A DNA stretch of 64,000 nucleotides from an uncultured Chloroflexia bacterium. Its GTDB lineage: Bacteria > Chloroflexota > Limnocylindria > Limnocylindrales > CSP1-4. The position numbers were made by a program, and so were the translations under genes. The DNA is taken from the NCBI GenBank assembly GCA_963713975.1, contig OY970218.1, positions 2,560,001 to 2,624,000 on the forward strand, in the 5' to 3' direction. Numbering within the stretch: the stretch's first letter is position 1; each line of letters begins with the position of its first letter. This document shows positions 1 through 39,574 of the stretch, one piece after another. The notes below the pieces were generated by a model. That model was not told the DNA's origin and searched no databases. It saw nothing but the letters and a program-made list of their open reading frames with translations.

Positions 1-2
1 TC

Positions 3-185: not shown

Positions 186-225
186 CCCGGCCGCCCGGGG
201 AGCGGCAGGTCCAGTGTGGCCGGCG

Positions 226-3234: not shown

Positions 3235-3250
3235 CGCGACCCTCCTGAGG

Positions 3251-3330: not shown

Positions 3331-3392
3331 AACTCGCTCGCAGGCGTCCCCTTGGAGCGGCCAAAGCGATCGCTTTTGACCGGAGGATGGGG

Positions 3393-5784: not shown

Positions 5785-5828
5785 TCCCCAGCCGTCGATC
5801 CCACCAACGAAAGAGAGAGGACACCCCC

Positions 5829-7019: not shown

Positions 7020-7031
7020 TCGCTCCTCCCT

Positions 7032-7071
7032 GCCAGCTGCTGCTGGGTGCTCCGCCCCCGCAGCAGCTGGC
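7032..7071 (+). terminator. Intergenic stem-loop after the binding-protein gene (mRNA stabiliser or partial terminator)
   Basis: GCCAGCTGCTGC (7032-7043) pairs with GCAGCAGCTGGC (7060-7071); no U-tract. Confidence 0.6.
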
Positions 7072-7094
7072 CTCCCCCGCCTGGAGGCGCCCTG

Positions 7095-8609: not shown

Positions 8610-9607
8610 TGGCCGCCACGCTCGCCCCCGCGCAGCCTCGCGCCAGACGCGTCCGCGCCGTGTCGCGCAATCAGGGCGCGATCATCGCTGGCGTCATCCT
8701 CGTCGTGCTCCTTGTCGTGTACCAGGCACAATCCGGCAAGATCCTCTCAACGATCCAGATGCGCATCCTGCTCAACGGGGCGCTCGCGCTCGTGTGGGCG
8801 GCGATCGGTCTGACGTTCGTCGTCGTTGCGGGTGGCTTCGACCTCTCCGTCGGCGCACTCATGAGTCTCGCGAACGTCCTTGCGGCCACCCTCTTGGCCG
8901 GAACGGTCAGCGACCCGTTCGTGATCGCCGCCATCCTGCTGGTCGGTGGCCTCGCCGGGCTCGCAAATGGTGTCCTCATCGCCGTCGTCCGAATCCAGTC
9001 GATCATCGTGACACTCTCTGCGATGTTCATCTGGTCCGGGGTCGCCCTGCTGATCATGCCGCAGCCGGGAGGCGTGATCCCGGGCTATGTCTCCGATCTC
9101 ACTGGCGGGTCGCTCGGCGGCGTCCCGGTGGCGCTCATCTGGATCGCGGCCATCGTGGGGGCGATCGCCGTGTTCAGCCAAAGCTCGGCATGGAACGTGC
9201 TGTTCTCTCTCGGCGGCGACGAGGTTGGAGCCCGCCGCAGCGGGGTTCGCGTGACACGCGGCAAGCTTCTCGCCTACACGACCGCGGGGGTCTGCTACGC
9301 GATTGCCGGCCTCTTCCTGAGCGCCCAGAGCACAGGGGGAGACGCGAACATCGGCACGCCATTCCTGCTCACGGCCTTCGCCGCTGTCATCCTCGGCGGC
9401 ACGCCGCTCGGTGGGGGACGCGGCACGTTCGTTGGCACAGTGCTCGGCGCGCTCGTGGTGGCGACGCTCGGCAGCGTGCTGCTCTCGCTGGGCGTGACGT
9501 CATACTGGACCGACGTGGTCCAGGGGGCGGTGCTGATCCTCGCCGTCGTCCTGCCGACGCTTGTGGCACGCATCGCGCGTCGGCGCGCGGCGAGGGACGC
9601 GAGGTGA
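8609..9607 (+). CDS. Sugar ABC transporter permease
   Basis: GGFDLSVG, IQSIIVTL, AAVILGGTPLGGGRG; multiple hydrophobic segments. Confidence 0.93.
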   Translation: MAATLAPAQPRARRVRAVSRNQGAIIAGVILVVLLVVYQAQSGKILSTIQMRILLNGALALVWAAIGLTFVVVAGGFDLSVGALMSLANVLAATLLAGTVSDPFVIAAILLVGGLAGLANGVLIAVVRIQSIIVTLSAMFIWSGVALLIMPQPGGVIPGYVSDLTGGSLGGVPVALIWIAAIVGAIAVFSQSSAWNVLFSLGGDEVGARRSGVRVTRGKLLAYTTAGVCYAIAGLFLSAQSTGGDANIGTPFLLTAFAAVILGGTPLGGGRGTFVGTVLGALVVATLGSVLLSLGVTSYWTDVVQGAVLILAVVLPTLVARIARRRAARDAR

Positions 9608-10581
9608 CCACGGTGGGCTCGAAACGGCGCATCCGTTCCTTCATCGCCGACAACCGTGTCGTCCTGCCAGTCTATGTTGCGATCGTCGTCCTCGCGGTGG
9701 CCGCGGCGGCTGTCAGCTCGAACCTCGCGACGTTCGAGAGCATCCGGACCATCCTGACGCTCTCGACCTTCCTGGCTGTCCTCGGGATCGGGCAAGGGCT
9801 GGTGATCCTCACCGGTGGCATTGACATGTCGGTCCCCTGGGGCATGGCCACGGCCGGAATCATGCTCACTACCATGACCGCCGGCCTGGACGGGGCGCTG
9901 GTCTGGGTCCTCCCCGCGATACTGCTGTTCGGCGTGGTGCTCGGCCTCGCCAACGGGATTGGCGTGGCGATCCTTGGCGTCTCGCCGCTGGTGATGACCC
10001 TCGCAATGAACGTGGTTCTCCGCGGCTTGACCCTGGTCGCGGTGAACGGCACGCCGACAGGGCTCACGCCGCCCGTGATCACAGACCTGATGTCCGGGCG
10101 GTTACTCGGGTGGCTACCGCCCGTGTTCCTCCTGGTCGCACTCTTGTACGCCGTCACGATCGTTGCTCTCCGACGGACGCCGTACGGACGGCGGGTCTAT
10201 GCGGTCGGCACGAACGCGCACGTCACCTGGCTCGCCGGCGTTCGCGTGCCCCTCATCGTGATCTCGGCCTACGTCGTATCGGGCGTCATGTCCGCGATTG
10301 CGGGGGTGCTACTCACCGGCTACTCCACCCTCGCCTTCGTCAACATGGGCGACCCGTACCTGCTGCCGTCGATCGCCGCGGTAGTCGTAGGTGGGGCCGC
10401 GATCACCGGCGGACGCGGCTCCCCGGTCGGGTCGCTGGGCGGCGCAATCATGCTCACGCTTCTTGGCACGCTCCTCACTGCTCTCGTGCTGCCGCCCGCA
10501 GTCCGCAATATTGCGTTCGGCGTCGTCGTGCTGGTTGCGGTGCTGGCCACCTCCTGGGAATCGCGTGACTCCCGCGTCTGA
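9604..10581 (+). CDS. Sugar ABC transporter permease
   Basis: GTG start overlapping upstream TGA; TGGIDMSV, YGRRVYAVG, IAAVVVGGAAITGGRG. Confidence 0.92.
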   Translation: MTTVGSKRRIRSFIADNRVVLPVYVAIVVLAVAAAAVSSNLATFESIRTILTLSTFLAVLGIGQGLVILTGGIDMSVPWGMATAGIMLTTMTAGLDGALVWVLPAILLFGVVLGLANGIGVAILGVSPLVMTLAMNVVLRGLTLVAVNGTPTGLTPPVITDLMSGRLLGWLPPVFLLVALLYAVTIVALRRTPYGRRVYAVGTNAHVTWLAGVRVPLIVISAYVVSGVMSAIAGVLLTGYSTLAFVNMGDPYLLPSIAAVVVGGAAITGGRGSPVGSLGGAIMLTLLGTLLTALVLPPAVRNIAFGVVVLVAVLATSWESRDSRV

Positions 10582-10605
10582 CCCTGCAAAGTTTGGAGGC
10601 CCGGA

Positions 10606-10992
10606 ATGGGCATGGATGACGGTCGCGGCCTGGAAATCTATCGCGAGGTGATCGGGGACCTGGGCCCCATCGAGCAACTGCGCGAAGTGTTGCCGGATAT
10701 CGACCGATACGTCGTCGATTTCTTCTACGGTGAGATCTACGCGCGTCCCGCTCTCGACCTCAAAGCGCGCGAGGCCGTCAGCGTCGCGTCACTCGCGGCG
10801 CTCGGTACCGCCGGGCCGCAACTGCGAGCGCACATCAATGGGGCCCTCAATGTTGGCTGGCGGCGGGAGGAGATCGTTGAGATCCTCCTCCAGGTGGCGC
10901 TGCATGCGGGCTTCCCAGCGACGCTCAACGGCCTCGCGGCCGCACGCGAGGTCTTTGCCGCACGGGACGCAGCCAGCGCCGCGCCTCGCTAG
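10606..10992 (+). CDS. Carboxymuconolactone decarboxylase (CMD/AhpD-like) family protein
   Basis: YGEIYARPALDLKARE, QLRAHINGALNVG, EIVEILLQVALHAGFPA; GGAGG RBS. Confidence 0.88.
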   Translation: MGMDDGRGLEIYREVIGDLGPIEQLREVLPDIDRYVVDFFYGEIYARPALDLKAREAVSVASLAALGTAGPQLRAHINGALNVGWRREEIVEILLQVALHAGFPATLNGLAAAREVFAARDAASAAPR

Positions 10993-10993
10993 A

Positions 10994-11210
10994 TGTGCAA
11001 CTGACGATGGCGGGTCATACCGCGGCTCCGGTCTTCTGGCACAGTCTCTCATAGGGCGTCTGACCGCCGAGGCCGCCGTGGGGACGGTCGTAGTTGCAGC
11101 AGTCCTCCCACTCCCGCAGGCGCTCGGCGAAGAGACCGGACTCGTCGATCGCGACGCCATCGGGGAGGTCGTAGAACTCGTCGGCGTCGATCCGGTGGGA
11201 CCGCTCGACC
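10994..11210 (-). mobile_element. IS481-family insertion sequence remnant (transposase C-terminus and one end)
   Basis: Minus frame VERSHRIDADEFY...LREWEDCCNYDRPHGGLGGQTPYERL-stop matches an IS481 integrase-core end; terminal TGTGCAACTGACG at 10994; upstream part of the transposase absent. Confidence 0.8.
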
Positions 11211-11496
11211 CATATTTCGTGCTGGACAGGGTCGACGAGGCGGACGGCGCCGTGGCCGGCGAACCGAACGCGATGGCTGTGCGTCGACATGCCGCCGACG
11301 GACAAGTCGGATGGTGTTGGGCAAGGAGTGCCAGCGATCGCCGGCCAAGCGGTGGCCCGTTGCACCAGGAGCAGGTTGGACCCAGGATCGGTCAGATGAG
11401 GGGCGATGGCTCGATCACTCGATCTGCGAGTGCGCTCAGGCAATGGGGTGCCACCCCCTCGTTGGTCAGGCGCCAATTGCATCGCCCAGCCGCCTT

Positions 11497-11619
11497 GGAG
11501 ATGCCGTCCGCCACCCTCAGAACCACGTCATCTGGCGGTCCGCCCTCAGGCAGACCCCAACATGTCGGGGAGTTGGCTGGCGCGCCAGGATTTCGAACCT
11601 GGAACCCCCTGATCCAGAG
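11497..11619 (-). repeat. att-like direct repeat: 3' half of tRNA-Gln plus 77 nt downstream flank (copy of 17010-17131)
   Basis: Identical to 17010-17131 apart from one extra T in the T-loop (GGATTTCGAACC vs GGATTCGAACC); identity stops at the anticodon loop. Confidence 0.93.
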
Positions 11620-12238
11620 GTAGACGCGGGAATCAGGGCTCGCAAGCCATCGTTTGAGCGTGAAGGACAGCGATCTCTGTCCGATTCCGGGATGAGTCAT
11701 CCGCACATCCCGGCGCCAGCTAGGCGTATACCGTAAATGGCTTGTGAGTCAGGCGCCATCGGCGCCCTCGCCCGAGAGGACTGCTGCGGACAGGGTTCGA
11801 ACATTGCCGCCAGCACTGGCCGGAAGCCGCCGGTCACGAAGCCGTGCCGTCCGACGAACGGCCGCCCTGCATCGAGAAGGGCGAGCGGCGCCGAGGGACC
11901 GGCTACGGCAGTACGGCGTGCTGGGAGACCCGCTTGGGGACTGGCCGAACGAGGGTGCCGGCTCGGTCTCGGGTAGAAGTCGCATCGAGATGCGGAAGCT
12001 CTCCTCCAGCCATCCGAAGGTACGGCCGAGTCAAGCTCTCGGGTCGCCCGTAGGCATGCGGCCCGCATGCCGGCCCAGTCGAATCGGTTGTGCTCGACCA
12101 GGCGGTCCCAAGCGAGCCTGTTGGCCTCGCTGTGAGCGGCAGCCCTCGCTCCACCTGAGCCGAGATCTACGACCGCCGGGCGCCCGACCGAGCATCGATC
12201 TTGATATGGTTGGCTCGCCGCGATGGACGTCCCGGCGA

Positions 12239-12346
12239 CCGTGAGCGACCTGGGTCCCAATCAGATTCCGCTCCACCAGGACCAGCGCCGTCCGGCGGCC
12301 AGGTGGGTGCAGTTCGGCGCTCGAGACTGACGCAGGTCGCTCACGG
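12239..12346. mobile_element. MITE-like 108-bp element
   Basis: 17/18-bp terminal inverted repeats CCGTGAGCGACCTG(G/C)GTC (12239-12256, 12329-12346) flanked by a direct GCGA 4-mer (12235-12238, 12347-12350). Confidence 0.6.
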
Positions 12347-12518
12347 GCGAAGGTGTGCATCACCTCGACGTGGCCATTCCCGGCCAAACACACGATCGGC
12401 ACCGCCATCAACGTGCTTCCGGTGCCCCAGGACTCTGAGCGTCCCCCACATTGACGAGATGCCACTTCGGGCCCACTCCCCGGTCGGTATCTCGATGCAA
12501 TTCAAGGAGGTAGCTCAA

Positions 12519-13361
12519 ATGCCGTCCGATCGTCAATCCGTTCTTGATCGTCTTCATCGCCGGATCGACGCGGGCGAGGCCGTGATCTTCGGAGCAGCGG
12601 GCGTCGGGCTCGTAGCGTCGGCAGCGCGGTCCGAAGACATCGATGTCCTGATGACATACAACATCGCGAAGTTCCGCATGGATGGACATCCATCGATCAT
12701 CGGCTATCTCCCCTATGGCGACGCCAACGCCATCACGGTCGAGATGGCGAGTCGGGTCATCCCGGTTGCCGGGGACGTTCCGGTCGTCGCCGGGGTCGGG
12801 GCTGCCGATCCATATCGCACGCTCGACCAGCTCTTGGACGGCGTGCTCGCGGTCGGCTACTCGGGCGTCACGAACACTCCGACGGCCGGGGTGTACGAGG
12901 GGGAGATGCGCCGGCTCATGGAATCGTTCGGGATTGGCTATGCACGCGAGGTCGAGATGGCGCGCCGTTGCCGCGAGCGGGACATCTTCACGGTGCTGTA
13001 CGCCTTCAGCCCTGAGGACGCGTCGGCCCTGGCGGCCGCGGGGACCGACGTCATCGCCGCGCACCTCGGCAACACGAAGGCGTCCGAGAACCCAGCCGAA
13101 GACATCGCTGATGCGATCAAACGGACCCAGGAGATGATCGACGCGGCTCGCTCGGTCGACCCCAACGCGATGGTCGTGGCCCACGGCGGCCCGCTGGAGA
13201 ACGCCGAGAACGTCGCGAAGGTGCTGGCCGCCACCTCGGCAGTCGGCTACATCGCGGGCTCGTCGATGGAGCGGCTCCCGGTCGTTGCGTCTGTCAGGCA
13301 GGCGGCGAAGCAGATGCGCCAGCTCAAGCTCGGTCCGGGCGCCACCTCGATGAAGGACTAG
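12519..13361 (+). CDS. TIM-barrel protein, PEP-hydrolase-like/TBST family (Tm-1 C-terminal domain homologue), copy 1
   Basis: GAAGVGLVA, YNIAKFRMDG, GYLPYGDAN, PVVAGV, AHLG, HGGP, GYIAGSSMERLP; AAGGAGG RBS. Confidence 0.85.
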   Translation: MPSDRQSVLDRLHRRIDAGEAVIFGAAGVGLVASAARSEDIDVLMTYNIAKFRMDGHPSIIGYLPYGDANAITVEMASRVIPVAGDVPVVAGVGAADPYRTLDQLLDGVLAVGYSGVTNTPTAGVYEGEMRRLMESFGIGYAREVEMARRCRERDIFTVLYAFSPEDASALAAAGTDVIAAHLGNTKASENPAEDIADAIKRTQEMIDAARSVDPNAMVVAHGGPLENAENVAKVLAATSAVGYIAGSSMERLPVVASVRQAAKQMRQLKLGPGATSMKD

Positions 13362-13369
13362 GAGACACG

Positions 13370-14644
13370 ATGCCAGCCGCCAGTCGGCCGACGGTCCTGC
13401 TCCCCGGTGCGTTCGACACCAAGGGACGCGAGAACCTGTTCGTCCGCGATCTCCTCCTCGGGCTGGGTGTCGAGCCCGTCCTGATCGACTTCGGGATCCT
13501 GCGCGACCCGGAGTTCGAGCCCGACATCACGGCATCAGCCGTGGCGAAGGCTGCTGGGACCGACTTGGCGCAGCTTCGCGCCAGGCGCGATGTCCCGGGG
13601 GCTCGCTTCGAGGCGATCACCGCCATGCGCTCGGGGTTGATCCAGATCGTCACCGAGCTTCACCGGGGGGGTCGGGTTGACGGGATCCTCGGGCTTGGAG
13701 GTGGCGAGGGGTCGACCGTCATCAGCGGGGCCATGCGAGAGCTCCCGTACGGACTGCCGAAGCTCCTCGTGACGACGATGACGCCGTCGAACATCGGCGA
13801 CTACTTCGGCTTGCGGGACCTGAGCGTGATGTGGACGGTGACCGACATCGCGGGCCTGAACCCCATCCTCGAGAAGATCCTCATCAACGCGGCGCACGCG
13901 ATGGCCGGGATGGTGCTGGCGCCGCCGCCGCCGGAACGTGATCGAAAGCCATTGATCGCGATCTCGATGTTCGGCATCACCACAACGGGTGCGATGCGCA
14001 TCCAGCAACGGCTCGAGGAGGCGGGCCTGGCCACGATCGTGTTCCATGCCATCGGAAGTGGCGGTGCCGCGATGGAACAGATGATCAGCGAGGGCCTGAT
14101 CGACGGCGTGGTTGATTTCACGCCGAGTGAGATCAATGACGACCTCTACGGTGGCATCTTCTCTGCCGGTCCGACTCGCATGCTCGCGGCGGCGGACCGC
14201 GGCATCCCGCAGGTTGTGGTCCCGGGTTCGCTCACGCTCCTGACGTTCGGCGGCCAGGCCGACACCCCGCCGCAGTTCATTGCGCCCGGACGAACGTGGG
14301 TCGCCCACTCACCAAATGTCACCTGCGTCCGGGCCAATGAAGAGGAGACCGCGGCGATCACGCAGGTGCTGGTCGATCGAGTCGCGGCGTCGAAAGGCGC
14401 CGTCGAGGTCGTCCTTCCCCTCGGGGGCATCTCTGACTACGAGATGCCCGGGGGCCCCCTCGACCACCCGGGATCCGATCAGGTCCTCTATTCAACCCTG
14501 CGACAGGGTTTGCCCGCTCGCGTGCGCCTGATCGAGGACCCGCGCGACATCAACGCTCCCGAGTTCGCCGACCTGGTGGCCGAGCGATTCGTCACGTTGT
14601 TCGAGAAGCGCGAACGCCAGTCCACCCAGAACCAGATCGCCTGA
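13370..14644 (+). CDS. Tm-1-like ATP-binding domain protein (UPF0261)
   Basis: GAFDTKGRE, GLGGGEG, LPYGLPKLLVTT, DIAGLN, SMFGITT, VFHAIGSGGAAME, GIPQVVVPG. Confidence 0.9.
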   Translation: MPAASRPTVLLPGAFDTKGRENLFVRDLLLGLGVEPVLIDFGILRDPEFEPDITASAVAKAAGTDLAQLRARRDVPGARFEAITAMRSGLIQIVTELHRGGRVDGILGLGGGEGSTVISGAMRELPYGLPKLLVTTMTPSNIGDYFGLRDLSVMWTVTDIAGLNPILEKILINAAHAMAGMVLAPPPPERDRKPLIAISMFGITTTGAMRIQQRLEEAGLATIVFHAIGSGGAAMEQMISEGLIDGVVDFTPSEINDDLYGGIFSAGPTRMLAAADRGIPQVVVPGSLTLLTFGGQADTPPQFIAPGRTWVAHSPNVTCVRANEEETAAITQVLVDRVAASKGAVEVVLPLGGISDYEMPGGPLDHPGSDQVLYSTLRQGLPARVRLIEDPRDINAPEFADLVAERFVTLFEKRERQSTQNQIA

Positions 14645-14660
14645 CAACCAGGAGTCATTC

Positions 14661-15497
14661 ATGAAGAGCAAGAGTGAGATTGTGGCTGACCTCCGCTCGA
14701 AAGCGGCGAGGTCGGAGTTCATCATCGGTGCGGGTGCGGGCATCGGGCTGTCGGCCAAGTGCGCTGTTGACGGGGGCGCCGACCTGGTGCTCGTGTTCAA
14801 CTCGGGCCGCTACCGGATGGCCGGGCGTGGATCGACCGCCGGATACCTGCCCTTCGGCGACGCCAACGCGATCGTGGCGGACATGGCTGGCGAGATCATC
14901 CCTATGTCCGGCGACGTCCCGGTCATCGCAGGCGTGTGCGGCACGGATCCCTTCAAGATCATGACCCACTACCTCGAGGACCTTGGTCACCGCGGCTACC
15001 AGGGTGTCCTGAACTTCCCGACCGTGGGCCTGATCGACGGCCTCTTCCGGCAGAGCCTCGAGGAGACGGGTCTCGGTTGGGACAACGAGGTCCGGATGAT
15101 CAAGACGGCTGCCGAGCTCGGGTTGCTGACCACCCCGTACGTCTTTACCCCAGAGGAGGGCGTCCAGATGGCGTCCGCCGGCGCCGACGTCGTCGTCGCC
15201 CACATGGGTGTAACGGTGAAGGGAACGATCGGCGCCAAGCAGTCGATGTCGCTCGGCGATGCCGCCAGCCGGTGCCAGGCGATCGCGGACGCCGTGCATG
15301 GCTCGCACCCCGATGTCCTCGTGATGTGCCACGGAGGGCCGATCGCCGAGCCTGGCGACGCGCAATACATCGCCGACCACACCACGGGCATCGTTGGTTT
15401 CTACGGCGCCAGCAGCACGGAGCGCATCCCGAGCGAGCGGGCGATGCTCGCCAAGATGCAGGAGTTCAAGGGCGTGACCGCAAGCCAGGCATCGTAG
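14661..15497 (+). CDS. TIM-barrel protein, PEP-hydrolase-like/TBST family, copy 2
   Basis: IIGAGAGIGLSAKC, NSGRYRMAGRGS, PVIAGVCGTDPF, NFPTVGLIDG, CHGGPI, GFYGASSTERIP. Confidence 0.92.
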   Translation: MKSKSEIVADLRSKAARSEFIIGAGAGIGLSAKCAVDGGADLVLVFNSGRYRMAGRGSTAGYLPFGDANAIVADMAGEIIPMSGDVPVIAGVCGTDPFKIMTHYLEDLGHRGYQGVLNFPTVGLIDGLFRQSLEETGLGWDNEVRMIKTAAELGLLTTPYVFTPEEGVQMASAGADVVVAHMGVTVKGTIGAKQSMSLGDAASRCQAIADAVHGSHPDVLVMCHGGPIAEPGDAQYIADHTTGIVGFYGASSTERIPSERAMLAKMQEFKGVTASQAS

Positions 15498-15530
15498 GGG
15501 ACGATCCGTCCTCCACGCCCGGCGGGCTGG

Positions 15531-16844
15531 TCACCAGTACCGCATCGCCCCGCGGAACAGGGCCGTGAGCAGCTTCCCGTTAACTTCGACCGGGGCCAGC
15601 TTGGTCACCCGGTGCTGGGGTAGCGTCGCTTCGACGAGGGCGGGGATGTCCGGCTCCGCATAGCCGACGTCCGCGAGGCCGTTCGGGATGCGCGCCTGGC
15701 GCATGAGCTCGATCACGCGCGCCGCGACGAGCTCACCTGACTCCCGGGCCGGGACGCCGGCGACCGAGGCGCCGAGCAGCTCGGCCGCCCGAAGGTGGCG
15801 CTCCGGGGACGCGGCTGCCGTGTGCCGGAAGACCGACGGGGCGTTGAGGATCACGGACATCCCGTGCGGGACTAGAGGGCGGGTGCGCGGGTAGTCGGGG
15901 GCGATGTACTCCTTCACCCCGCCCGAGACGGCATACGACATGCCGTGAGGCAGGTGGACACCGGCGTTCCCGAATCCGATGCCCGCCCAGGTCGCCGCCA
16001 GCGCCAGCTCGGTCCGAGCCGCAACATCCGACGGGCTGGCGATCACTCGCCCGAGAGCCCCCGGAAGCATGGACAGCGTGCGTTCCGCCCAGATATCGCT
16101 GAACGGGTTCGACCCCTGGTAGGCGGGCCGGGCGCTCGGCGTGTCCGGCCGGGGGCGGGTCGAGTATCGCCGGGCGGTATACGCCTCGAGGGCATGGCAC
16201 AGGATGTCGAAGGCAGACGATGCCGTGACCATGGGCGGCAGGGAAAGCGTGTTCAGCGGATCGATGATCGCAAGCGACGGGCGCAGCAGACGGTGGGAGA
16301 TCCCGGTCTTGGCGTGCATCGACTCGAGGTCGAAGATCGCGACACCCGTCGTTTCGCTGCCAGTCCCGGCGGTCGTCGGGATGGCGATCAGCGGGCGGAG
16401 CGGTCCGGGCGGCGGGACGCCATTGCCAATCGGCGGATTCACATAGGCGAGGAAGTCGTTCGGGTAGGTGGAGTACAGGTTGGCGGCTTTCGCGGTGTCC
16501 ATGACCGAGCCGCCGCCGATGGCGACGAACCCGTCGTACGTGGCAGCGCTTGCAGCCTCTGCCGCAAGCGCAAACGAGCGGTCCGTTGGCTCGATGGCGA
16601 CATCGACGAACAGATCCGTCTCGATCCCCGCAGATCGAAGCGACTCGAGGGCGTGGACCGCAGCCCCGGACTCAACGACTCGCGGGTCCGAGAACAGGAG
16701 GACCCGCTTGAGGCCAAGGTCATGGGCGTGGTCCCCGAGCTCATTCGTCGCGCCCGGACCAACCACGAGATTGGCGACACCGACGGAGAAGGCGACGTCA
16801 AAGGCTGTGGCTTCCTGACGTAGCTGCGGTTGCTCGGCACCCAT
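15531..16844 (-). CDS. Hydroxyacid-oxoacid transhydrogenase (Fe-ADH family, ADHFE1/HOT-like)
   Basis: EPTDRSF, GGGSVMDTAKAANLY, PTTAGTGSETTGVAIFD, RPAYQGSNP, GFGNAGVHLPHGMSY, VPHGMSV. Confidence 0.9.
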   Translation of the reverse strand: MGAEQPQLRQEATAFDVAFSVGVANLVVGPGATNELGDHAHDLGLKRVLLFSDPRVVESGAAVHALESLRSAGIETDLFVDVAIEPTDRSFALAAEAASAATYDGFVAIGGGSVMDTAKAANLYSTYPNDFLAYVNPPIGNGVPPPGPLRPLIAIPTTAGTGSETTGVAIFDLESMHAKTGISHRLLRPSLAIIDPLNTLSLPPMVTASSAFDILCHALEAYTARRYSTRPRPDTPSARPAYQGSNPFSDIWAERTLSMLPGALGRVIASPSDVAARTELALAATWAGIGFGNAGVHLPHGMSYAVSGGVKEYIAPDYPRTRPLVPHGMSVILNAPSVFRHTAAASPERHLRAAELLGASVAGVPARESGELVAARVIELMRQARIPNGLADVGYAEPDIPALVEATLPQHRVTKLAPVEVNGKLLTALFRGAMRYW

Positions 16845-17086
16845 GGAAACTCCCGATGGTCGCCCGGACAGCTGGCTGTGCAGCGTCCCGCGCCCGATCA
16901 GATCCGGGCGGAGTGGCGATACCGGGCGAAGGAATTGTACAGGCCCGATCGCTCGCCGCAAGGATCACTGCGCACCGAGTGCCGGCACCGCGGCGAGTTG
17001 CGCTTCGCCGGAGATGCCGTCCGCCACCCTCAGAACCACGTCATCTGGCGGTCCGCCCTCAGGCAGACCCCAACATGTCGGGGAGT

Positions 17087-17161
17087 TGGCTGGCGCGCCA
17101 GGATTCGAACCTGGAACCCCCTGATCCAGAGTCAGGTGCCATACCGTTAGGCCACGCGCCA
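17087..17161 (-). tRNA. tRNA-Gln, anticodon CTG
   Basis: Minus strand TGGCGCG...CCTGA-CTCTGGA-TCAGG...CCAGG-TTCGAAT-CCTGG-CGCGCCA-G-CCA; full cloverleaf with encoded CCA; TACCAT -10 upstream. Confidence 0.97.
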
Positions 17162-17387
17162 GCGACCGCCCGGAATGGTACCGCAAGTCCACGAGAGGGG
17201 GCTACCCGCAGGCTCCGCCGCGGGACCGGTGTCGCGCTGGAGTGGGCGCGGCCCGGTCCATCCAGCCCGTGGCGATGCGCCCGATGGCCCTGTGGGCCGG
17301 CACGTGACTCCCCGCAAGGTCGCGGGCAGCCCTGCCGTCGCCGCGGCCGCCCAAGTCCGTGGCCAGGCAGATGATCAAGGAGCCCTG

Positions 17388-18524
17388 TTGCCCGCTGCCA
17401 TCGGCCCGCGGATCGTGGCGCCGCAGCCCGCCCATAGATTCGGACCGGGACGGCCGATCGCCCTCCTCGTCGCCATGCTGCTTGTCGGGATGCTTGCGCT
17501 GCCCGGGCTCGCGCAGGGGGGCGCCGGTCCGAAGGTCGTCGTGATCGTGGGGCCTGTCGCCGCGCACAACGCCAGCTACAAGGCGGAGGCGAACGAGGTC
17601 GTCGCCGAGGCGCGCAAGCACACCTCCAACGTCGTCGTCCTGTACACGCCGAGGGCGACCTGGTCGAGGGTGAAGCAGGCTGCCGCGGGGGCCTCCGTGC
17701 TTGTCTACTTCGGGCACGGGTGGGGTTATCCGTCGCGATACGGTCCGTTCAACCCGCTCAAGATGAACGGCATGGCGCTCGACCCCGCGTCGGGTGCCGA
17801 TGGTCGTCGTCGCGTGTACTACGGCGAGAGCCTGGTCAGGACCTCGATCCGCCTCGCGCCCGACGCCGCGGTCCTGCTCTTCCACCTGTGCTACGCGTCG
17901 GGCAACACCGAGCCCGGCCTGTCTGAGGGCACCACCGCGCAGTCCAGGCGCCGTGTCGACAATTTCGGGGCAGGATGGCTCCGCGCCGGCGCGGGGATCG
18001 TCCTCGCCGACGGCCACCCCAAGGCGCCGGGCAGCTACATCCGCCAGCTGTTCACGAAGGATCGCACCGCCTGGGAGATGTTCAAGGCGGCTCCGGACTA
18101 TCACGGGCACGCCGCCGGGACCTACGCATCGGCGCGAACGCCCGACGCCCGATACGCGATGGATCCGGACCGCGGCGGCTCGAACCCGAGGGGGTTCTAC
18201 CGCTCGATCATCGGAAACCTGTCCCTGCGGACGACGACCATCACCGGGCGGGTCGGGCCCGAGTCGCCCAGCCCCAGCGACCCTGGGTCGCCCGGCCCCG
18301 ATGACTCGGCTTCGCCGTCCCTGGAGCCCACCCCGGAGCCGACGCCTGAACCGACCCCTGCGCCGACCGCCGAGCCCACTGCAGAGCCGACGGCTGAGCC
18401 ACCCGAGGCGCCCACCGCCGAGCCCACCCCTGCGCCGACCGCCGAGCCCACCGCCGAGCCCACCGCCGAGCCCACCCCTGAGCCGTCCCCGGCGCCGACC
18501 GCGGAGCCCACCGGCGAGCCGTAG
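17388..18524 (+). CDS. Secreted protein with candidate caspase/gingipain-like His-Cys dyad and C-terminal Pro/Thr/Glu repeats
   Basis: AAGGAG then TTG start; signal peptide ending ALPGLAQG; VLVYFGHG and VLLFHLCYASG; (PTAE)n tail. Confidence 0.65.
   Translation: MPAAIGPRIVAPQPAHRFGPGRPIALLVAMLLVGMLALPGLAQGGAGPKVVVIVGPVAAHNASYKAEANEVVAEARKHTSNVVVLYTPRATWSRVKQAAAGASVLVYFGHGWGYPSRYGPFNPLKMNGMALDPASGADGRRRVYYGESLVRTSIRLAPDAAVLLFHLCYASGNTEPGLSEGTTAQSRRRVDNFGAGWLRAGAGIVLADGHPKAPGSYIRQLFTKDRTAWEMFKAAPDYHGHAAGTYASARTPDARYAMDPDRGGSNPRGFYRSIIGNLSLRTTTITGRVGPESPSPSDPGSPGPDDSASPSLEPTPEPTPEPTPAPTAEPTAEPTAEPPEAPTAEPTPAPTAEPTAEPTAEPTPEPSPAPTAEPTGEP
18322..18521 (+). repeat. Imperfect 12-nt coding repeats (PTAE/PTPE/PTPA)
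   Basis: Recurrent GAGCCCACCGCC / CCGACCGCCGAG units. Confidence 0.85.
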
Positions 18525-31158: not shown

Positions 31159-31737
31159 GTGATCTCCACTGGGCGCATGGTCCGCCGCCGCCGGCGCATC
31201 CTCGCCTTCGCGTGGGTCGTCGCGATCGCCGTCGCGGGCGGCGCCGGCGCCGTCTCGCTGGCCCTCTTCACCCGGGAGGGGCCGGTTGAAGTGCCATTCA
31301 CCGTGGGGACGATCTCGCTTGGGCTGGCTCCGGCGGGGACGCTCATCACGTTCTCGGGGATGGTTCCCGGAGATGCGGTGGCGGGCCCGCTCGAGATCGC
31401 CAACGGGGGAACCGGAGCGCTCCGGTATTCGATGACATCCGAGGCGACGGACCTGGATGGGAAGCACCTTCTCGACGTCCTGATGCTCGCCGTGGAGCGC
31501 CGGAGCGGGTGCGACGGCGCCGTCCTCGAGACGATCTACAGCGGCCCCATCGGTCTGGCCGCGTTCGGGGATCCAGCCCCCGGTCTCGACCCTGGCGACC
31601 GCGCGCTCGGGTCCGGCTCGTCCGAGGTCCTGTGCTTGAGCGCGATGCTGCCGGTGGGGACCGACTTCCTGTACGGCGGGGCGGCATCCACCGCGACGCT
31701 CACGTTCTGGGCCGAGCAGACGGCGGGGAACCCGTGA
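31159..31737 (+). CDS. TasA/camelysin-family protein with SipW-type signal peptide (subunit 1)
   Basis: RRRRR-hydrophobic-GAGAVSLA|LFT; FTVGTISL, GMVPGD, IANGGTGALRY, C-terminal TLTFWAEQTAGNP. Confidence 0.8.
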   Translation: MISTGRMVRRRRRILAFAWVVAIAVAGGAGAVSLALFTREGPVEVPFTVGTISLGLAPAGTLITFSGMVPGDAVAGPLEIANGGTGALRYSMTSEATDLDGKHLLDVLMLAVERRSGCDGAVLETIYSGPIGLAAFGDPAPGLDPGDRALGSGSSEVLCLSAMLPVGTDFLYGGAASTATLTFWAEQTAGNP

Positions 31738-34700
31738 GCGGGCCGAGGCGCGCCCTCGTGACCGCGCTGCGATGCGCCTTGTTCGCCATGGTGCTTGGCG
31801 GCCTCCTCGTGGCCGGTAGTGCAGCCGCGGCTCCGGCCACCAGCTATCGCCTGATCGCCCTCACCTCCGGCTCGATGGCTCCGACGGTTCCCATGGGCTC
31901 GCTCGCCGTCATCGAGAGCGTCGAGCCGGGTGAGGTCCAGGCGGGTGACGTGGTGACGGTCCGGCTGGGGTCCGGCGCCCTCCTCACGCACCGGGTCATC
32001 GAGGTCACCACGCAGGACGGGTATCCGGCACTGCTCCTGCGCGGCGACGCCAACCCGGTCGCCGACCGTGCGGTCATTCCGCTCGACAGCCTCGTCGGTC
32101 GCGTCTCGGCGGTTGTGCCGGCTGCGGGATACCTCCTGTGGGCGCTCAGCCGGCCCGAGGGCATCGCCACCTGGGCAGCGGTTGCGTGCCTCCTGCTGCT
32201 CGGACTTGCGGCTGCTGGTGGGACTGGCGGTCGGAAGCCCCACCGGGGTGCACGCCTCTGGCGGGCGATGCGGGGGGGTCGCCTCAGAGCCCCGGCGATG
32301 GCGCTCCGGCGTGCGATGTGGCTTGGCCTCGACCAGCCTGCCATGGCCGCCGTGATCTTCGTCGTGCTGGTCGCGGGCGGGAGCTCGACCCTGGCATCCG
32401 CCGCCATCTTCACCACGTCGGCCACGGTCGGCGACAACACCTTCAGCACCGGGACCTGGTCCGCGAGTGCCTATCGCTCGGTGGCCAGCGGTGCCTGGGC
32501 CGACCCGGCGACGTGGCAGCGGCATAACGGGGTTGGCTGGGTGTCTGCCACCAGGCCGCCCGAATCCATGGACGGCGTGGTGACCGTGGGCAGTGGCCAT
32601 GTCGTGACCGTCGAACGGCCGGTGGCCGTCGATGAGGTCGTTGTGGCCTCTGGAGGCCAGCTTGCCGTGGCGGATGGCGTGATCCTTACCGTCGAGGACG
32701 GCTCGGGCGCGGACCTTGGCATCGCGGGCACGTTCGACACGATCGGGACGACGACGCTCGATTCCGGGGCGGATGTCGCGATCGAGAGCGGCGGGCTCCT
32801 CGTCGTGTCGGGGACCCTCGATGGCGCGGGATCCCTCACCGGGCGGTCGGGCACGCTCCAGGCGAGCGGAGGCGCACGATCCATCCCGGTTCCGGTGATG
32901 CTCGAGACGTCCCTGACCGTTGCCGGAACCGAAGGCATGTCGCTCGGGGACGAGGTGGGCGGTACCGGCGCGCTCATCAAGAACGGCACCGGCACCCTGA
33001 CCCTGGGTGGCGCCAGCACCTACACCGGGGCCACCACCGTCAACGCCGGCACCCTCCGGCTGGGGACCGCCAACGCGATCGGCCCGTCGAGCGCGACCAC
33101 GGTCGCCGCGGGCGCGGTGCTCGATCTCGCGGGCCACGACGAGACCCTGGGCTCGCTCGCCGGGGCGGGCACGGTGACCAGCGGGGTGCCCGGCGCAGTG
33201 ACCCTGACCGTGGGCGGCAACGGCGTCGGCACCGGCACCTTCTCCGGGCTGCTCGAGGACGGGGGCGGCCAGCTGGCCCTGGTCAAGACCGGCACCGGCA
33301 CCCTGACCCTGTCGGGCACCCTCAGCACGTACACGGGGACCACCACGATCAGCGCCGGCATCCTCTCGGTCAGCAACGACCGGGCGCTCGGTGCCGTGCC
33401 ACTCGTTCCGTCCCCGGGCCGGCTCGTGATCGGCACCGCCACCCTGGCCACCACCGCGACGTTCACCCTCGACGCCGACCGGGGCATCGCGACCAGCGGC
33501 ACCAGCACCGTCTCGGCGGGCACCGGCACCACGCTCACCTACGGCGGGACCATCGCGGGCACGGGAGCGCTGGCCAAGACCGGCACCGGCACCCTCGTCC
33601 TGTCGGGTGCCAGCACGTACACGGGGACCACCACGATCAGCGCCGGCATCCTCTCGATCGCGGACGACACCGCCCTGGGCGCCGTCCCGGACTCGCCCAC
33701 GCCGGGCCGGCTCGTGATCGGCACCGCCACCCTGGCCACCACCGCGACGTTCACCCTCGACGCCGACCGGGGCATCGCGACCAGCGGCACCAGCACCGTC
33801 TCGGCGGGCACCGGCACCACGCTCACCTACGGCGGGACCATCGCGGGCACGGGAGCGCTGGCCAAGACCGGCACCGGCACCCTCGTCCTGTCGGGTGCCA
33901 GCACGTACACGGGGACCACCACGATCAGCGCCGGCATCCTCTCGATCGCGGACGACACCGCCCTGGGCGCCGTCCCGGACTCGCCCACGCCGGGCCGGCT
34001 CGTGATCGGCACCGCCACCCTGGCCACCACCGCGACGTTCACCCTCGACGCCGACCGGGGCATCGCGACCAGCGGCACCAGCACCGTCTCGGCGGGCACC
34101 GGCACCACGCTCACCTACGGCGGGACCATCGCGGGCACGGGAGCGCTGGCCAAGACCGGCACCGGCACCCTCGTCCTGTCGGGTGCCAGCACGTACACCG
34201 GGATCACCACCATCAGCGCGGGGGTCATCCGGGTGCAGCACGAGAGCGCCCTGGGCTCCACGGCCGGCGGCACCACCGTCACCTCGGGCGCGGCGATCGA
34301 GATCGACGGCAGCGGCCTCGCCCTCGCCCTCGCCGACGCGATCACCAGCCTCAACGGCACCGGCGTGGGCGGCACGGGCGCGATCCGCAACCTGGCCGGC
34401 GCCAACAGCTGGTCGGGGGCGATCACGATGGCCGCGAACTCCACGGTCAGCACCGACGCCGGCACGCTCACCCTCGGAGCGATCGCCGGCAACACCCGCA
34501 CCCTGACCATCATCGGGGCCGGGAACACGACCATCGGCGGCGTGATCGCCACGACCACCGGCGCGCTCATCAAGAACGGCACCGGCACCCTGACCCTGGG
34601 TGGCGCCAGCACCTACACCGGGGCCACCACCGTCAACGCCGGCACCCTCCGGCTGGGGACCGCCAACGCGATCGGCCCGTCGAGCGCGACCACGGTCGCC

Positions 34701-37700
34701 GCGGGCGCGGTGCTCGATCTCGCGGGCCACGACGAGACCCTGGGCTCGCTCGCCGGGGCGGGCACGGTGACCAGCGGGGTGCCCGGCGCAGTGACCCTGA
34801 CCGTGGGCGGCAACGGCGTCGGCACCGGCACCTTCTCCGGGCTGCTCGAGGACGGGGGCGGCCAGCTGGCCCTGGTCAAGACCGGCACCGGCACCCTGAC
34901 CCTGTCGGGCACCCTCAGCACGTACACGGGGACCACCACGATCAGCGCCGGCATCCTCTCGGTCAGCAACGACCGGGCGCTCGGTGCCGTGCCACTCGTT
35001 CCGTCCCCGGGCCGGCTCGTGATCGGCACCGCCACCCTGGCCACCACCGCGACGTTCACCCTCGACGCCGACCGGGGCATCGCGACCAGCGGCACCAGCA
35101 CCGTCTCGGCGGGCACCGGCACCACGCTCACCTACGGCGGGACCATCGCGGGCACGGGAGCGCTGGCCAAGACCGGCACCGGCACCCTCGTCCTGTCGGG
35201 TGCCAGCACGTACACGGGGACCACCACGATCAGCGCCGGCATCCTCTCGATCGCGGACGACACCGCCCTGGGCGCCGTCCCGGACTCGCCCACGCCGGGC
35301 CGGCTCGTGATCGGCACCGCCACCCTGGCCACCACCGCGACGTTCACCCTCGACGCCGACCGGGGCATCGCGACCAGCGGCACCAGCACCGTCTCGGCGG
35401 GCACCGGCACCACGCTCACCTACGGCGGGACCATCGCGGGCACGGGAGCGCTGGCCAAGACCGGCACCGGCACCCTCGTCCTGTCGGGTGCCAGCACGTA
35501 CACCGGGATCACCACCATCAGCGCGGGGGTCATCCGGGTGCAGCACGAGAGCGCCCTGGGCTCCACGGCCGGCGGCACCACCGTCACCTCGGGCGCGGCG
35601 ATCGAGATCGACGGCAGCGGCCTCGCCCTCGCCCTCGCCGACGCGATCACCAGCCTCAACGGCACCGGCGTGGGCGGCACGGGCGCGATCCGCAACCTGG
35701 CCGGCGCCAACAGCTGGTCGGGGGCGATCACGATGGCCGCGAACTCCACGGTCAGCACCGACGCCGGCACGCTCACCCTCGGAGCGATCGCCGGCAACAC
35801 CCGCACCCTGACCATCATCGGGGCCGGGAACACGACCATCGGCGGCGTGATCGCCACGACCACCGGCGCGCTCATCAAGAACGGCACCGGCACCCTGACC
35901 CTGGGTGGCGCCAGCACCTACACCGGGGCCACCACCGTCAACGCCGGCACCCTCCGGCTGGGGACCGCCAACGCGATCGGCCCGTCGAGCGCGACCACGG
36001 TCGCCGCGGGCGCGGTGCTCGATCTCGCGGGCCACGACGAGACCCTGGGCTCGCTCGCCGGGGCGGGCACGGTGACCAGCGGGGTGCCCGGCGCAGTGAC
36101 CCTGACCGTGGGCGGCAACGGCGTCGGCACCGGCACCTTCTCCGGGCTGCTCGAGGACGGGGGCGGCCAGCTGGCCCTGGTCAAGACCGGCACCGGCACC
36201 CTGACCCTGTCGGGCACCCTCAGCACGTACACGGGGACCACCACGATCAGCGCCGGCATCCTCTCGGTCAGCAACGACCGGGCGCTCGGTGCCGTGCCAC
36301 TCGTTCCGTCCCCGGGCCGGCTCGTGATCGGCACCGCCACCCTGGCCACCACCGCGACGTTCACCCTCGACGCCGACCGGGGCATCGCGACCAGCGGCAC
36401 CAGCACCGTCTCGGCGGGCACCGGCACCACGCTCACCTACGGCGGGACCATCGCGGGCACGGGAGCGCTGGCCAAGACCGGCACCGGCACCCTCGTCCTG
36501 TCGGGTGCCAGCACGTACACGGGGACCACCACGATCAGCGCCGGCATCCTCTCGATCGCGACGACACCGCCCTGGGCGCCGTGCCCGGACTCGCCCGTCG
36601 CCGGGCCGGCTCGTGATCGGCACCGCCACCCTGGCCACCACCGCGACGTTCACCCTCGACGCCGACCGGGGCATCGCGACCAGCGGCACCAGCACCGTCT
36701 CGGCGGGCACCGGCACCACGCTCACCTACGGCGGGACCATCGCGGGCACGGGAGCGCTGGCCAAGACCGGCACCGGCACCCTCGTCCTGTCGGGTGCCAG
36801 CACGTACACGGGGACCACCACGATCAGCGCCGGCATCCTCTCGATCGCGGACGACACCGCCCTGGGCGCCGTCCCGGACTCGCCCACGCCGGGCCGGCTC
36901 GTGATCGGCACCGCCACCCTGGCCACCACCGCGACGTTCACCCTCGACGCCGACCGGGGCATCGCGACCAGCGGCACCAGCACCGTCTCGGCGGGCACCG
37001 GCACCACGCTCACCTACGGCGGGACCATCGCGGGCACGGGAGCGCTGGCCAAGACCGGCACCGGCACCCTCGTCCTGTCGGGTGCCAGCACGTACACCGG
37101 GATCACCACCATCAGCGCGGGGGTCATCCGGGTGCAGCACGAGAGCGCCCTGGGCTCCACGGCCGGCGGCACCACCGTCACCTCGGGCGCGGCGATCGAG
37201 ATCGACGGCAGCGGCCTCGCCCTCGCCCTCGCCGACGCGATCACCAGCCTCAACGGCACCGGCGTGGGCGGCACGGGCGCGATCCGCAACCTGGCCGGCG
37301 CCAACAGCTGGTCGGGGGCGATCACGATGGCCGCGAACTCCACGGTCAGCACCGACGCCGGCACGCTCACCCTCGGAGCGATCGCCGGCAACACCCGCAC
37401 CCTGACCATCATCGGGGCCGGGAACACGACCATCGGCGGCGTGATCGCCACGACCACCGGCGCGCTCATCAAGAACGGCACCGGCACCCTGACCCTGGGT
37501 GGCGCCAGCACCTACACCGGGGCCACCACCGTCAACGCCGGCACCCTCGACGTCAACGGGAGCACCGCCGGCGGCGGGTTCACCGTGGCGGCTGGTGCCA
37601 CGCTGGGAGGCTCCGGAACCGTCGGTGGAACGGTCAGCGTCTCGGGCACGCTGAGCCCTGGCTCATCCGCCGGGCGGCTGACGAACGGTGCGCTGACGCT

Positions 37701-38019
37701 GGTCGCAGCGTCCACGTTCGCCGTCGAGATCGGTGGCACGACGCCCGCCAGCCAGCACGACCAGGACCGCGTTGCCAGCGGCGCGATCACGATCGGCGCT
37801 GGCGTCCAGCTCTCGCTGGTCACGATCGGAGGCTTCACTCCGACCATCGGCCAGACGTTCCTGATCCTCGACAAGGCGTCCGCCGGCGCGATCAGCGGCA
37901 CCTTCACCGGCCTCCCCCAGGGCTCGACGATCGCGACGTTCCTGGGCAGCGCGCTGAGCGCGCAGATCAGCTACACCGCCGGCGATGGCAACGACGTGGT
38001 GCTCACGGTCCTGCCCTGA
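31734..38019 (+). CDS. SipW-type signal peptidase fused to a giant beta-helix adhesin with autotransporter-associated beta-strand repeats (one apparent frameshift at ~36560-36600)
   Basis: GTGA overlap start; SGSMAPT, GDVVT, THRV, RGDAN; internal signal ...AGGSSTLASAA|IFTTSATVGDNTFSTGTW; repeated LxKxGTGTLxLxGASTYTGxTT(I/V)xAGxL; ends ISYTAGDGNDVVLTVLP in the +1 frame; ~2094 aa if corrected. Confidence 0.85.
32964..37548 (+). repeat. Near-identical intragenic tandem macro-repeats (1593, 1305, 1594 nt plus a partial unit) built with 288-nt subunits
   Basis: Unit start ACCGGCGCGCTCATCAAGAAC at 32964, 34557, 35862 and 37456; the 288-nt module occurs 2, 1 and 2 times. Confidence 0.95.
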
Positions 38020-38268: not shown

Positions 38269-38853
38269 TTGACCCAGCACCAGCCATTCCCGCCCCTTGC
38301 GGGCCGCTCTTGGTGGCGCCACGGCCAGGTCGCCCTCATCGCAGGCTCGCTGGTCGCCATGATCGGCGCCGGTGCGATGTCACTTGCAACGTTCACCGAC
38401 AGTGAGGCGTCCACCGGCTCATGGACGGCGGGCACGATCGTGCTCGGCGTAAGCCCGACGACCACATTCACGGCAAACAACATCATGCCCGGCGACACCG
38501 GCAGCCAGGACCTCACCGTCTCGAACAACGGGACCGGCGCCCTGCGCTATGCGATGTCGGGCGCCTCCACCAACCTTGACGGACTCGGGCTCGCGGCCCA
38601 GGTGGCCCTGACCATCCAGGCGGGCACCTGCGCCTCCCCGACGTCCACGTTGTTCGTCGGCACCCTCGCGACGGCTGCCCTCGGCAGCAACGCCACCGGG
38701 CAGGACACGGGCGACCGCCCGGTCGCGGCTCAGGCCTCCGACAGCCTGTGCTTCACGTGGGACTTCCCGCTCGCTTCCGGCAACGCCTTCCAGGGCGCGG
38801 CCACGGGCACCACGTTCACGTTCGACGCCGAGCAGACCGCCAACAACCCGTAG
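38269..38853 (+). CDS. TasA/camelysin-family protein with SipW-type signal peptide (subunit 2, likely major)
   Basis: GAGAMSLA|TFTDSEASTGSWTAGTIVL, NIMPGDTGSQDLTVSNNGTGALRY, FQGA..TFTFDAEQTANNP; TTG start uncertain. Confidence 0.88.
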   Translation: MTQHQPFPPLAGRSWWRHGQVALIAGSLVAMIGAGAMSLATFTDSEASTGSWTAGTIVLGVSPTTTFTANNIMPGDTGSQDLTVSNNGTGALRYAMSGASTNLDGLGLAAQVALTIQAGTCASPTSTLFVGTLATAALGSNATGQDTGDRPVAAQASDSLCFTWDFPLASGNAFQGAATGTTFTFDAEQTANNP

Positions 38854-38908: not shown

Positions 38909-38929
38909 CCGTCGGTGGAGCCCTGCGTC

Positions 38930-39574
38930 ATGTCCATCGCCACGATCACGATCCGGATCCTGCGGCGCACGATCGATGTGGCCCTGCTGCTTCTGATCGT
39001 GCTCGTGCTCGGAACCCTCGCCATCTCGAAGGTCGTGCCCTCCGTCACCGGCGGCACGACCTTCGTCGTCCAGGGCGGATCGATGCAGCCCGCGATCCCA
39101 TACGGATCCGCCGTGATCGTGACCCCGGTGGGCCCGGGCGAGCTCCGGTCGGGCGACGTCGTCAGCCTCCGGGTGGGCGAGCGGCGGCTGGTGTTCACGC
39201 ACCGCATCATCCGGCTCGTTCCCCGCGACGACGGCCTGTGGCTCGAGACCCGGGGGGACGCCAACACCGACCCCGACCCGGCGCTCGTGCCGGCATCCGC
39301 GGTGATCGGCAGGCTCGCTGCCACGATCCCCGTTGCCGGCTACGCCGTTGCCCTGCTCGGATCCGTTTCAGGGATTGCTTTCGTCGTGGCGCTCGCATGC
39401 GCCCTGCTGATGGGCGGTGGCCTCCTCGGCGGGCTTGACGCGGAGCGGCGCGCGGAACGCCTCCGCCCGGTTCCCAGCCCGGTCCCCGGCCGGCAGGCGG
39501 GAGTCCACCGGCTTCCCCGGGATCGTCGGAGCCGGCGACCCGTTGTCCCTCCGCCCGTCGTCCGGGAGGTCTGA
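38930..39574 (+). CDS. sipW: Signal peptidase I, SipW/ER type (S26B)
   Basis: N-terminal TM, GGSMQPAI, GDVVS, FTHRII, TRGDAN.D, C-terminal TM. Confidence 0.88.
   Translation: MSIATITIRILRRTIDVALLLLIVLVLGTLAISKVVPSVTGGTTFVVQGGSMQPAIPYGSAVIVTPVGPGELRSGDVVSLRVGERRLVFTHRIIRLVPRDDGLWLETRGDANTDPDPALVPASAVIGRLAATIPVAGYAVALLGSVSGIAFVVALACALLMGGGLLGGLDAERRAERLRPVPSPVPGRQAGVHRLPRDRRSRRPVVPPPVVREV

Follow-up and report, generated by a model that had tools for sequence, protein, structure and literature searches.

In a 64,000-nucleotide stretch of contig OY970218.1 (GenBank assembly GCA_963713975.1), referred to here as the window, from an uncultured Chloroflexia bacterium of the order Limnocylindrales, we found a single gene that encodes a SipW-type signal peptidase joined to a predicted secreted protein with its own SipW-type signal and a long series of PATR repeats. 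The gene lies within a small module that also encodes two TasA-like fibre subunits and a second, free-standing SipW. Comparison with orthologous sequences confirmed that the fusion is real and conserved rather than an artefact of this assembly. On balance, we consider it probable that the gene represents a conserved fusion within a TasA-type module, in which the PATR cargo would be released by the protein's own peptidase and would then start the fibre. Signal peptidases are textbook trans-acting enzymes, and while the TasA/SipW-type fibre module is known, the covalent union of peptidase and substrate is what differs here. No description of a peptidase-substrate fusion was found in the full text of the literature, of which supplementary gene-neighbourhood tables might show one.

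The fused gene as a whole spans positions 31734-38019 on the forward strand, as do the other parts of the module, and its frame is broken at 36560-36598 in the assembly. As the preliminary description of the window had proposed, direct reading revealed one stop-free frame that begins at a GTG at 31734 and joins the peptidase, an internal signal and the cargo. The first part of the frame (31734..32231) encodes a SipW-type signal peptidase I domain of the kind found in the endoplasmic reticulum (ER), which matched TIGR02228 (archaeal/ER-type signal peptidase I; MEROPS S26B) with 80.2 bits over residues 28-156, compared to a curated cut-off of 51.85. The Bacillus-specific SipW equivalog NF046067 stayed under its cut-off (57.9 versus 190), as expected of a distant member. 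Kyte-Doolittle analysis identified three hydrophobic stretches (residues 6-35, 141-166 and 202-227), the first two of which correspond to predicted transmembrane helices TM1 (nt 31749-31838) and TM2 (nt 32154-32231). The peptidase motifs reported earlier were found in their places, namely SGSM (residues 45-48, nt 31866-31877), THRV (85-88, nt 31986-31997) and RGDAN (103-107, nt 32040-32054). Based on motif and alignment, the catalytic residues are predicted to be Ser47 (31872-31874), His86 (31989-31991) and Asp105 (32046-32048), roles which we take to be those described in work on B. subtilis SipW and SEC11, and all three were invariant in an alignment of 83 sequences. An AlphaFold2 model of residues 1-309 reached block values of the predicted local distance difference test (pLDDT) of 85-97 over residues 1-160, with helices at 2-36 and 141-161 that agree with the Kyte-Doolittle segments. 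In Foldseek, this model matched the catalytic chain of human signal peptidase best (7p2q_A, E 5.7e-5; 7p2p_A, E 2.9e-4; both entries of the signal peptidase complex), with TM(target) scores of 0.56-0.57. The peptidase domain thus appears to be intact and is predicted to be active.

The peptidase is connected to the cargo by an Arg-rich, presumably cytoplasmic loop (residues 162-200, 32217..32333), which contains 10 Lys/Arg compared to 1 Asp/Glu, would also supply the internal signal with its n-region, and holds a run of seven G nucleotides (G7). The third hydrophobic helix (32337..32405) would provide the h- and c-regions of this signal. The predicted cut site is found where the preliminary description had placed it, GGSSTLASAA|IFTTSATVGDNTFSTGTW, between Ala224 and Ile225 (nt 32405|32406). 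Since hydropathy and the basic loop, read by the positive-inside rule, would put both the active site and the cut site outside, the earlier proposal that the two share the same outer face is supported by the presence of three helices with a basic loop between helices 2 and 3. The region displays the pattern of a SipW-cognate signal, with a basic n-region, a hydrophobic core, small residues at -3 and -1, an aromatic residue at +2 and [FW]-x-x-G-T about 10 residues further on, and the same pattern is present in both TasA-like genes. In eight fused orthologues, S222 (-3), A224 (-1) and F226 (+2) were invariant, as were T227, N235, T236 and W242. The Phe at P2' of the cargo is the same residue as in TasA, which carries Phe at this position and depends on SipW (PMC10269814, partial text). 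From these features we infer that the cargo would be cleaved after Ala224 by a SipW-type activity, possibly in cis. Cleavage in cis has precedent in the clan, since the fold family includes the self-cleaving LexA and lambda repressor. Like LexA, lambda cI and UmuD, which belong to family S24 of the same clan as S26, the fused protein combines a protease fold and a predicted scissile bond in one chain, and its AlphaFold2 model also matched 1f39_A (E 7.4e-4) and LexA entries. LexA, cI and UmuD are cytoplasmic regulators with a Ser-Lys dyad, without membrane helices and without export.

The preliminary description had cautioned that the G7 run might be a sequencing slip or a phase-variable switch that uncouples the two parts of the gene. 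The run is indeed present, at 32272-32278; the suspicion attached to it was not borne out by the orthologues, which we identified using 289 residues of the fused protein as query. Three single proteins from three different sources (P0002, P0003 and P0004) covered 89-99% of the query at 50-55% identity and contain PATR repeats. A word-indexed search limited to longer proteins gave 5 hits from 8000 candidates scored, while an exhaustive search of 1.84 billion representatives gave 15,074 hits at E values up to 0.001. The top five of the exhaustive search (P0003, P0007 with 1859 aa, P0008, P0009 and P0010 with 1415 aa) each aligned in one continuous match running from query residues ~4-15 to 288-289, which includes the peptidase, the linker, the signal and the start of the cargo. 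In 301 genomes of the order, a tally that counts two unpublished genomes (G225 and G248) on which no result rests, stop-free matches extended past residue 270 in G139, G273, G236, G184 and G197, and G234 contained two matches within one 508-aa frame. The orthologue in G139, at 52% identity, has an intact open frame of 2182 codons that reaches the shared C-terminal motif of the cargo. Assemblies independent of this one contain fused orthologues, as do other genera of the family, and one orthologue has the source label Candidatus Limnocylindrales. The possibility that homologues are always split, raised in the preliminary description, is therefore at odds with the single-frame orthologues at 42-57% identity. 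The set of genome contigs contained no close orthologues, the 289-residue query matching only SipW domains there (22-48% identity), and in a metagenome scan with the pattern of the cargo N-terminal domain, which identified 80 loci, the fusion was present only in L094, where it is intact, and in L095, which was left out of use on account of several frame breaks on its contig.

At the junction itself, the linkers align in frame across the G7 position without large gaps, such that RGGRLRAPA aligns with RGSPLRAPA, and residues R171, R177, R180, L191, R193, W196, L199, D200 and P202 were invariant in four sequences. A homopolymer of at least six nucleotides was found in none of the four orthologous linkers that could be read (L174, L176, L177 and L094); at the G7 position L094 reads GTCCGCCGAGGC, with no run. 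Because the orthologues hold the same frame across this position without a homopolymer, the run is neither a slip nor a conserved phase switch, and because the layout is conserved from end to end, the joint frame is not a chance open frame.

The same layout of an S26B peptidase, an internal SipW-type signal and a cargo, which the preliminary description had suggested looking for, was found with other cargos, among them in Actinomycetota. These include collagen-like repeats (P0016, P0019, P0035 and, with PF01391, G184), OmpL47-type barrels (P0005) and unnamed C-terminal domains in isolates of Gordonia, Williamsia, Rhodococcus, Arthrobacter and Glutamicibacter. The sister locus in G184 (L184, 2948-7075) encodes the collagen-like repeat protein as its fused cargo, with the fusion, a TasA-like gene and a free SipW in the same order as in the window. 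When fused forms were defined by a tail of more than 230 residues, a third helix and an A-x-[FWL] motif, they made up 11 of the 53 genome-contig loci with a motif-defined peptidase frame (from 80 loci) and 22 of 119 proteins, four of those 22 being judged doubtful; the 119 proteins were those kept of 154 after 35 had been removed by the motif filter. Labelling by length alone also counts false cases as fused: the frame of L017 resembles a shadow on the opposite strand, P0015 loses the frame past the linker, and P0020, P0022, P0027 and P0086 have tandem peptidases or another layout. Each of the latter four proteins contains two matched SipW-type stretches, and the fused gene of G273 directly adjoins a short SipW frame, so the in-frame joining of neighbouring genes seems to be common in such loci.

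Split relatives indicate how such a fusion could arise. In three loci of the same genus, the SipW gene ends in a TAG stop that is followed immediately by the ATG or GTG of the substrate gene in the same frame, and in seven further places in the order a single in-frame stop separates peptidase and signal. A single stop change would therefore be sufficient to create the fusion. In a quick IQ-TREE phylogeny of the peptidase domain, the domain from the window belonged to a clade with a Shimodaira-Hasegawa-like approximate likelihood ratio test (SH-aLRT) support of 95, comprising nine rows, namely seven fused forms, one frame-damaged long form and one short form. The free SipW of the window was placed in a different well-supported clade, of short peptidases. 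If fused forms are defined by their signal, this tree requires 9 changes of the label, of which well-supported branches force at least 5, and 8 changes when the label is scored only against short forms. FastTree gave a similar picture, with 12 changes needed for a fused label defined by length only. As judged from these trees, the distribution needs the fused layout to have arisen several times independently.

Next to the cut site, the segment predicted to become the N-terminus of the mature cargo (32406..32468; residues 225-245, IFTTSATVGDNTFSTGTWSAS) looks like a TasA-type donor strand and resembles the mature N-termini of both TasA-like proteins. In TasA, the donor strand is the mature N-terminus, residues 28-38, and the N-terminus of TapA, which resembles this strand, is thought to supply the first strand of the fibre (PMC9674648, partial text). 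We modelled the complex of the mature TasA-like protein encoded just upstream of the fusion (TasA-like 1) and cargo residues 225-309. This complex scored 0.81 in three runs, compared to 0.00 for the best of three controls, a mark attained by 58 of 80 solved complexes and by 2 of 110 mismatched pairs. The runs shared at least 88% of contacts, the partner had a pLDDT of at least 78, and the modelled interface brings cargo residues 225-245 against subunit residues 15-35 and 137-152. The model suggests that the cargo N-terminus acts as a donor strand in the neighbouring TasA-like subunit. Because residues 225-245 are placed at TasA-like 1, it also suggests that the cargo is a TapA-like fibre starter or tip adhesin, a likeness in how the protein would work and not one of homology. 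The preliminary description, which had envisaged the plain release of an adhesin, is upheld for the single gene and the same-face topology, and its caveat on G7 is resolved; mere release of the cargo is improbable.

In the frame of the peptidase, the cargo extends over 32406..36559 and consists of an N-terminal domain (YRS..G.W...TWQR.NG..W) followed by PATR beta-strand repeats, which matched PF12951 with 266.8 bits over 11 in-frame stretches and TIGR02601 with 313 bits; 3 more PATR repeats lie beyond the frame break. The repeats are built from 288-nt units and from a 1305-nt super-repeat in 3 copies. Across 32964-37186 the 288-nt units are arranged in tandem, and the three 1305-nt copies were 100% identical over the 300-nt segments compared, which points to a very recent expansion or gene conversion. 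Searches of Pfam and NCBIfam detected no LPXTG-like or other anchoring domain in the cargo and no beta-barrel translocator family, all matches being to the repeat region (PF12951, TIGR02601 and partial matches to ShdA/EprS repeats far under their cut-offs). The N-terminal domain motif TW[QE]R[YFH]NGxxW was confirmed in 141 metagenome stretches, most of which match only residues ~240-309, and it therefore appears to mark a widespread PATR-type head domain that usually occurs without the peptidase.

Alignment of four repeat copies, together with direct reading, located the frame break to a cluster of three lesions (36560..36598): a G missing at ~36560, an extra G at 36583 and an A replaced by GT at 36597-36598, with a net change of +1 that shifts the cargo frame. 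The remainder of the cargo continues in the next frame (36599..38019, within an open reading frame at 36505-38019, with PATR x3) and ends in ...ISYTAGDGNDVVLTVLP, a C-terminus shared with P0002, P0010 and the G139 orthologue. Outside the lesions, the affected repeat copy matches its sister copies at 100% identity; the lesions are probably consensus errors in long perfect repeats. A programmed frameshift was considered and rejected, since three lesions within 39 nt of an otherwise identical repeat are better accounted for by a local consensus error or a dead copy. P0004 is likewise out of frame over residues ~1020-1355, at nearly the same spot in the repeat unit (after ...IDAGVV). Since this protein, from another assembly, breaks within a few codons of the same position, the variable spot between repeat variants would appear to be error-prone in assemblies.

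The genome consists of a single contig of 3.62 Mb and is rated 92% complete. It contains two PF12389 matches and two SipW-type matches, all of them inside the four-gene module of TasA-like 1, the SipW-cargo fusion, TasA-like 2 and the free SipW, as well as three LepB-type peptidase matches, all outside it. On its gene content, the locus is a self-contained TasA-type fibre module. The gene for TasA/camelysin-like fibre subunit 1 (31177..31737; PF12389, 16.5 bits, under the 22.5 cut-off) encodes a SipW-type signal that ends in VSLA|LFTREG and is followed from nt 31264 by the mature part, and its TGA stop overlaps the GTG start of the fused gene (GTGA). A TasA-like gene overlaps or abuts the start of the fusion in all three loci read (the window, L094 and L183 of G139); in the latter two, it is an orthologue of subunit 1 that stands directly before the fusion. 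Fibre subunit 2 (38269..38853; PF12389, 50 bits versus the 22.5 cut-off), which shares 38-39% identity with subunit 1, has the signal AMSLA|TFTDSEASTGSWTAGT. The free-standing SipW-type signal peptidase (38915..39574; 219 aa; TIGR02228, 78 bits) lies 0.9 kb downstream of the cargo stop codon at 38019 and is 38% identical to the fused peptidase domain. Genes for an S33 hydrolase, an ABC transporter, a glycosyltransferase and an aldehyde dehydrogenase flank the module. The whole window has a G+C content of ~72%, with a step near 18 kb from ~0.665-0.69 in 1-18000 to 0.71-0.75 in 18000-64000.

These results can be combined in a working model. The fused protein would insert into the membrane via three helices, of which helix 1 would anchor the peptidase domain on the outside and helix 2 would bring the chain back to the cytoplasm. 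With the Arg-rich loop as n-region and helix 3 as h-region, the inferred topology would return the S-A-A|I-F site to the outer face beside the active site. A SipW-type activity, most likely that of the protein's own domain acting within a chain or between neighbouring chains, would then cut after Ala224 and free a PATR beta-helix protein of ~1,870 residues, the new N-terminus of which could plug as a donor strand into the TasA-like subunit encoded just upstream. The cargo would subsequently act like Bacillus TapA, as a fibre starter or tip adhesin. The fusion itself may have originated when the stop that separated a SipW gene from the next, in-frame substrate gene was lost, and would ensure joint production of peptidase and starter in equal number. 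A more far-reaching version, which we offer tentatively and regard as possible, is a self-processing secretion polyprotein: membrane insertion would present the internal signal to the protein's own active site, and one intramolecular cut would yield both a resident SipW that matures the TasA-like subunits and a PATR tip adhesin that nucleates the fibre on the spot, a logic that would have evolved repeatedly in monoderms.

Several observations weigh against the favoured model of a self-released fibre starter. TIGR04088, the curated model of SipW-cognate signals, had no match on the cargo signal (residues 189-249) at E values up to 10; it also had no match on TasA-like 1 and reached only 15.2 bits on TasA-like 2, versus a cut-off of 19. 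AlphaFold2 left residues 219-241 at pLDDT <50, so that the cut site is undocked, and gave linker blocks of 57-69. If the lesions at 36560-36598 are real, this copy of the gene may be truncated or a pseudogene. The score of the modelled complex may owe something to solved TasA fibres already known to the predictor. In addition, one short, unfused row falls within the nine-row clade of the window's peptidase, and close unfused relatives exist in P0012 (183 aa, 46% identity), which the motif filter excluded from the trees, and in P0014; the fusion is therefore not obligatory.

Of the alternatives to self-release, cleavage of the cargo in trans survives best, although we consider it rather unlikely. 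A free SipW or a LepB-type enzyme could make the cut, since the free SipW is only 0.9 kb away and LepB-type peptidases exist in the genome; the TasA-like subunits would then be the sole substrates of the fused domain, and the fusion, a tolerated loss of a stop, would have no role of its own. This fits the presence of the second SipW in the locus, as likewise beside the fusion in G184, G197 and G273, the alternation of fused and split forms among close relatives (9, 8 or 12 label changes) and the existence of split loci one point change from fusing. However, orthologues as far apart as 42-57% identity, and from different genera, have retained the fusion, and in G139 the only other SipW-type match is ~270 kb away, such that the fused domain is the only local peptidase there.

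An uncut cargo, with a genuine fusion in which helix 3 is a signal-anchor and keeps the PATR adhesin attached to the membrane, seems very unlikely to us. The cargo has no detected anchoring domain of its own in Pfam or NCBIfam, and both the AlphaFold2 model, which leaves the cut site out of the active site, and the blindness of TIGR04088 to the signal would agree with a permanent tether. Against this, the catalytic triad is kept, the residues at -3, -1 and +2 are invariant in the eight orthologues, and the modelled donor strand begins at residue 225 and could hardly reach its partner with a membrane helix still attached.

Finally, the idea that G7 is a slip or phase switch and that the locus truly contains two genes, with SipW ending at 32355 in a G6 version and the cargo starting from the in-frame ATG at 32298, is practically untenable: G7/C7 runs are uncommon (49 + 30 = 79 in the 3.62 Mb genome) and the assembly does have an indel cluster elsewhere in the same gene, but in independent assemblies the fused orthologues keep one frame before and after the position of the run, with no homopolymer of at least six in the four linkers, the Met at 32298 is unconserved in them, and G+C at third codon positions (GC3) in the fused frame is similar on either side (peptidase 0.86, linker and signal 0.88, cargo 0.85; the value of 0.65 over just the 20 codons before G7 is uninformative).

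The self-releasing fusion favoured here has its closest counterpart in the tapA-sipW-tasA operon of Bacillus subtilis, where a dedicated ER/archaeal-type signal peptidase is likewise encoded beside TasA-family subunits. The two systems share a substrate Phe at P2' (PMC10269814, partial text), and the use of a mature N-terminus as donor strand with an accessory protein that mimics this strand (PMC9674648, partial text) recurs here as a model prediction. Unlike in B. subtilis, the peptidase and the TapA-like partner are part of one polypeptide, SipW and TasA-like genes are each present as two paralogues, and the host is a high-GC uncultured bacterium. The partner is, moreover, a PATR beta-helix of ~1,870 residues that is unrelated to TapA, a homologue of which was absent among the Pfam and NCBIfam matches to the genes of the locus.

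A second parallel is provided by Tafi/AbpX-type fibre loci, in which signal peptidase I is fused to a DUF5305 (TafG-like) domain in Actinoplanes, Tepidiforma and Anaerolinea (PMC11821415 and preprint 10.64898/2026.01.04.697558, partial text of both). In both cases the peptidase of a fibre locus is joined to another component of the same locus; as far as the partial text of these sources describes it, however, the DUF5305 partner is an accessory subunit and not a substrate with its own signal and cut site. DUF5305 was not detected here with Pfam or NCBIfam. With regard to its repeats (PF12951, TIGR02601), the cargo resembles the PATR adhesins of autotransporters. Unlike type Va autotransporters, it has no detected barrel and would be exported by the internal SipW-type signal instead.

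Databases call such proteins just 'signal peptidase I', as for P0003 and P0005, a name that hides large adhesins. In the self-processing version, the fusion would couple fibre initiation to the peptidase in space and in number. If the favoured model is true, the fusion would provide a handle on how TasA-type fibres are started or capped outside Bacillus, including in Chloroflexota and Actinomycetota. A recurrent peptidase-substrate fusion would, in that case, represent a natural export enzyme built to free its own cargo.

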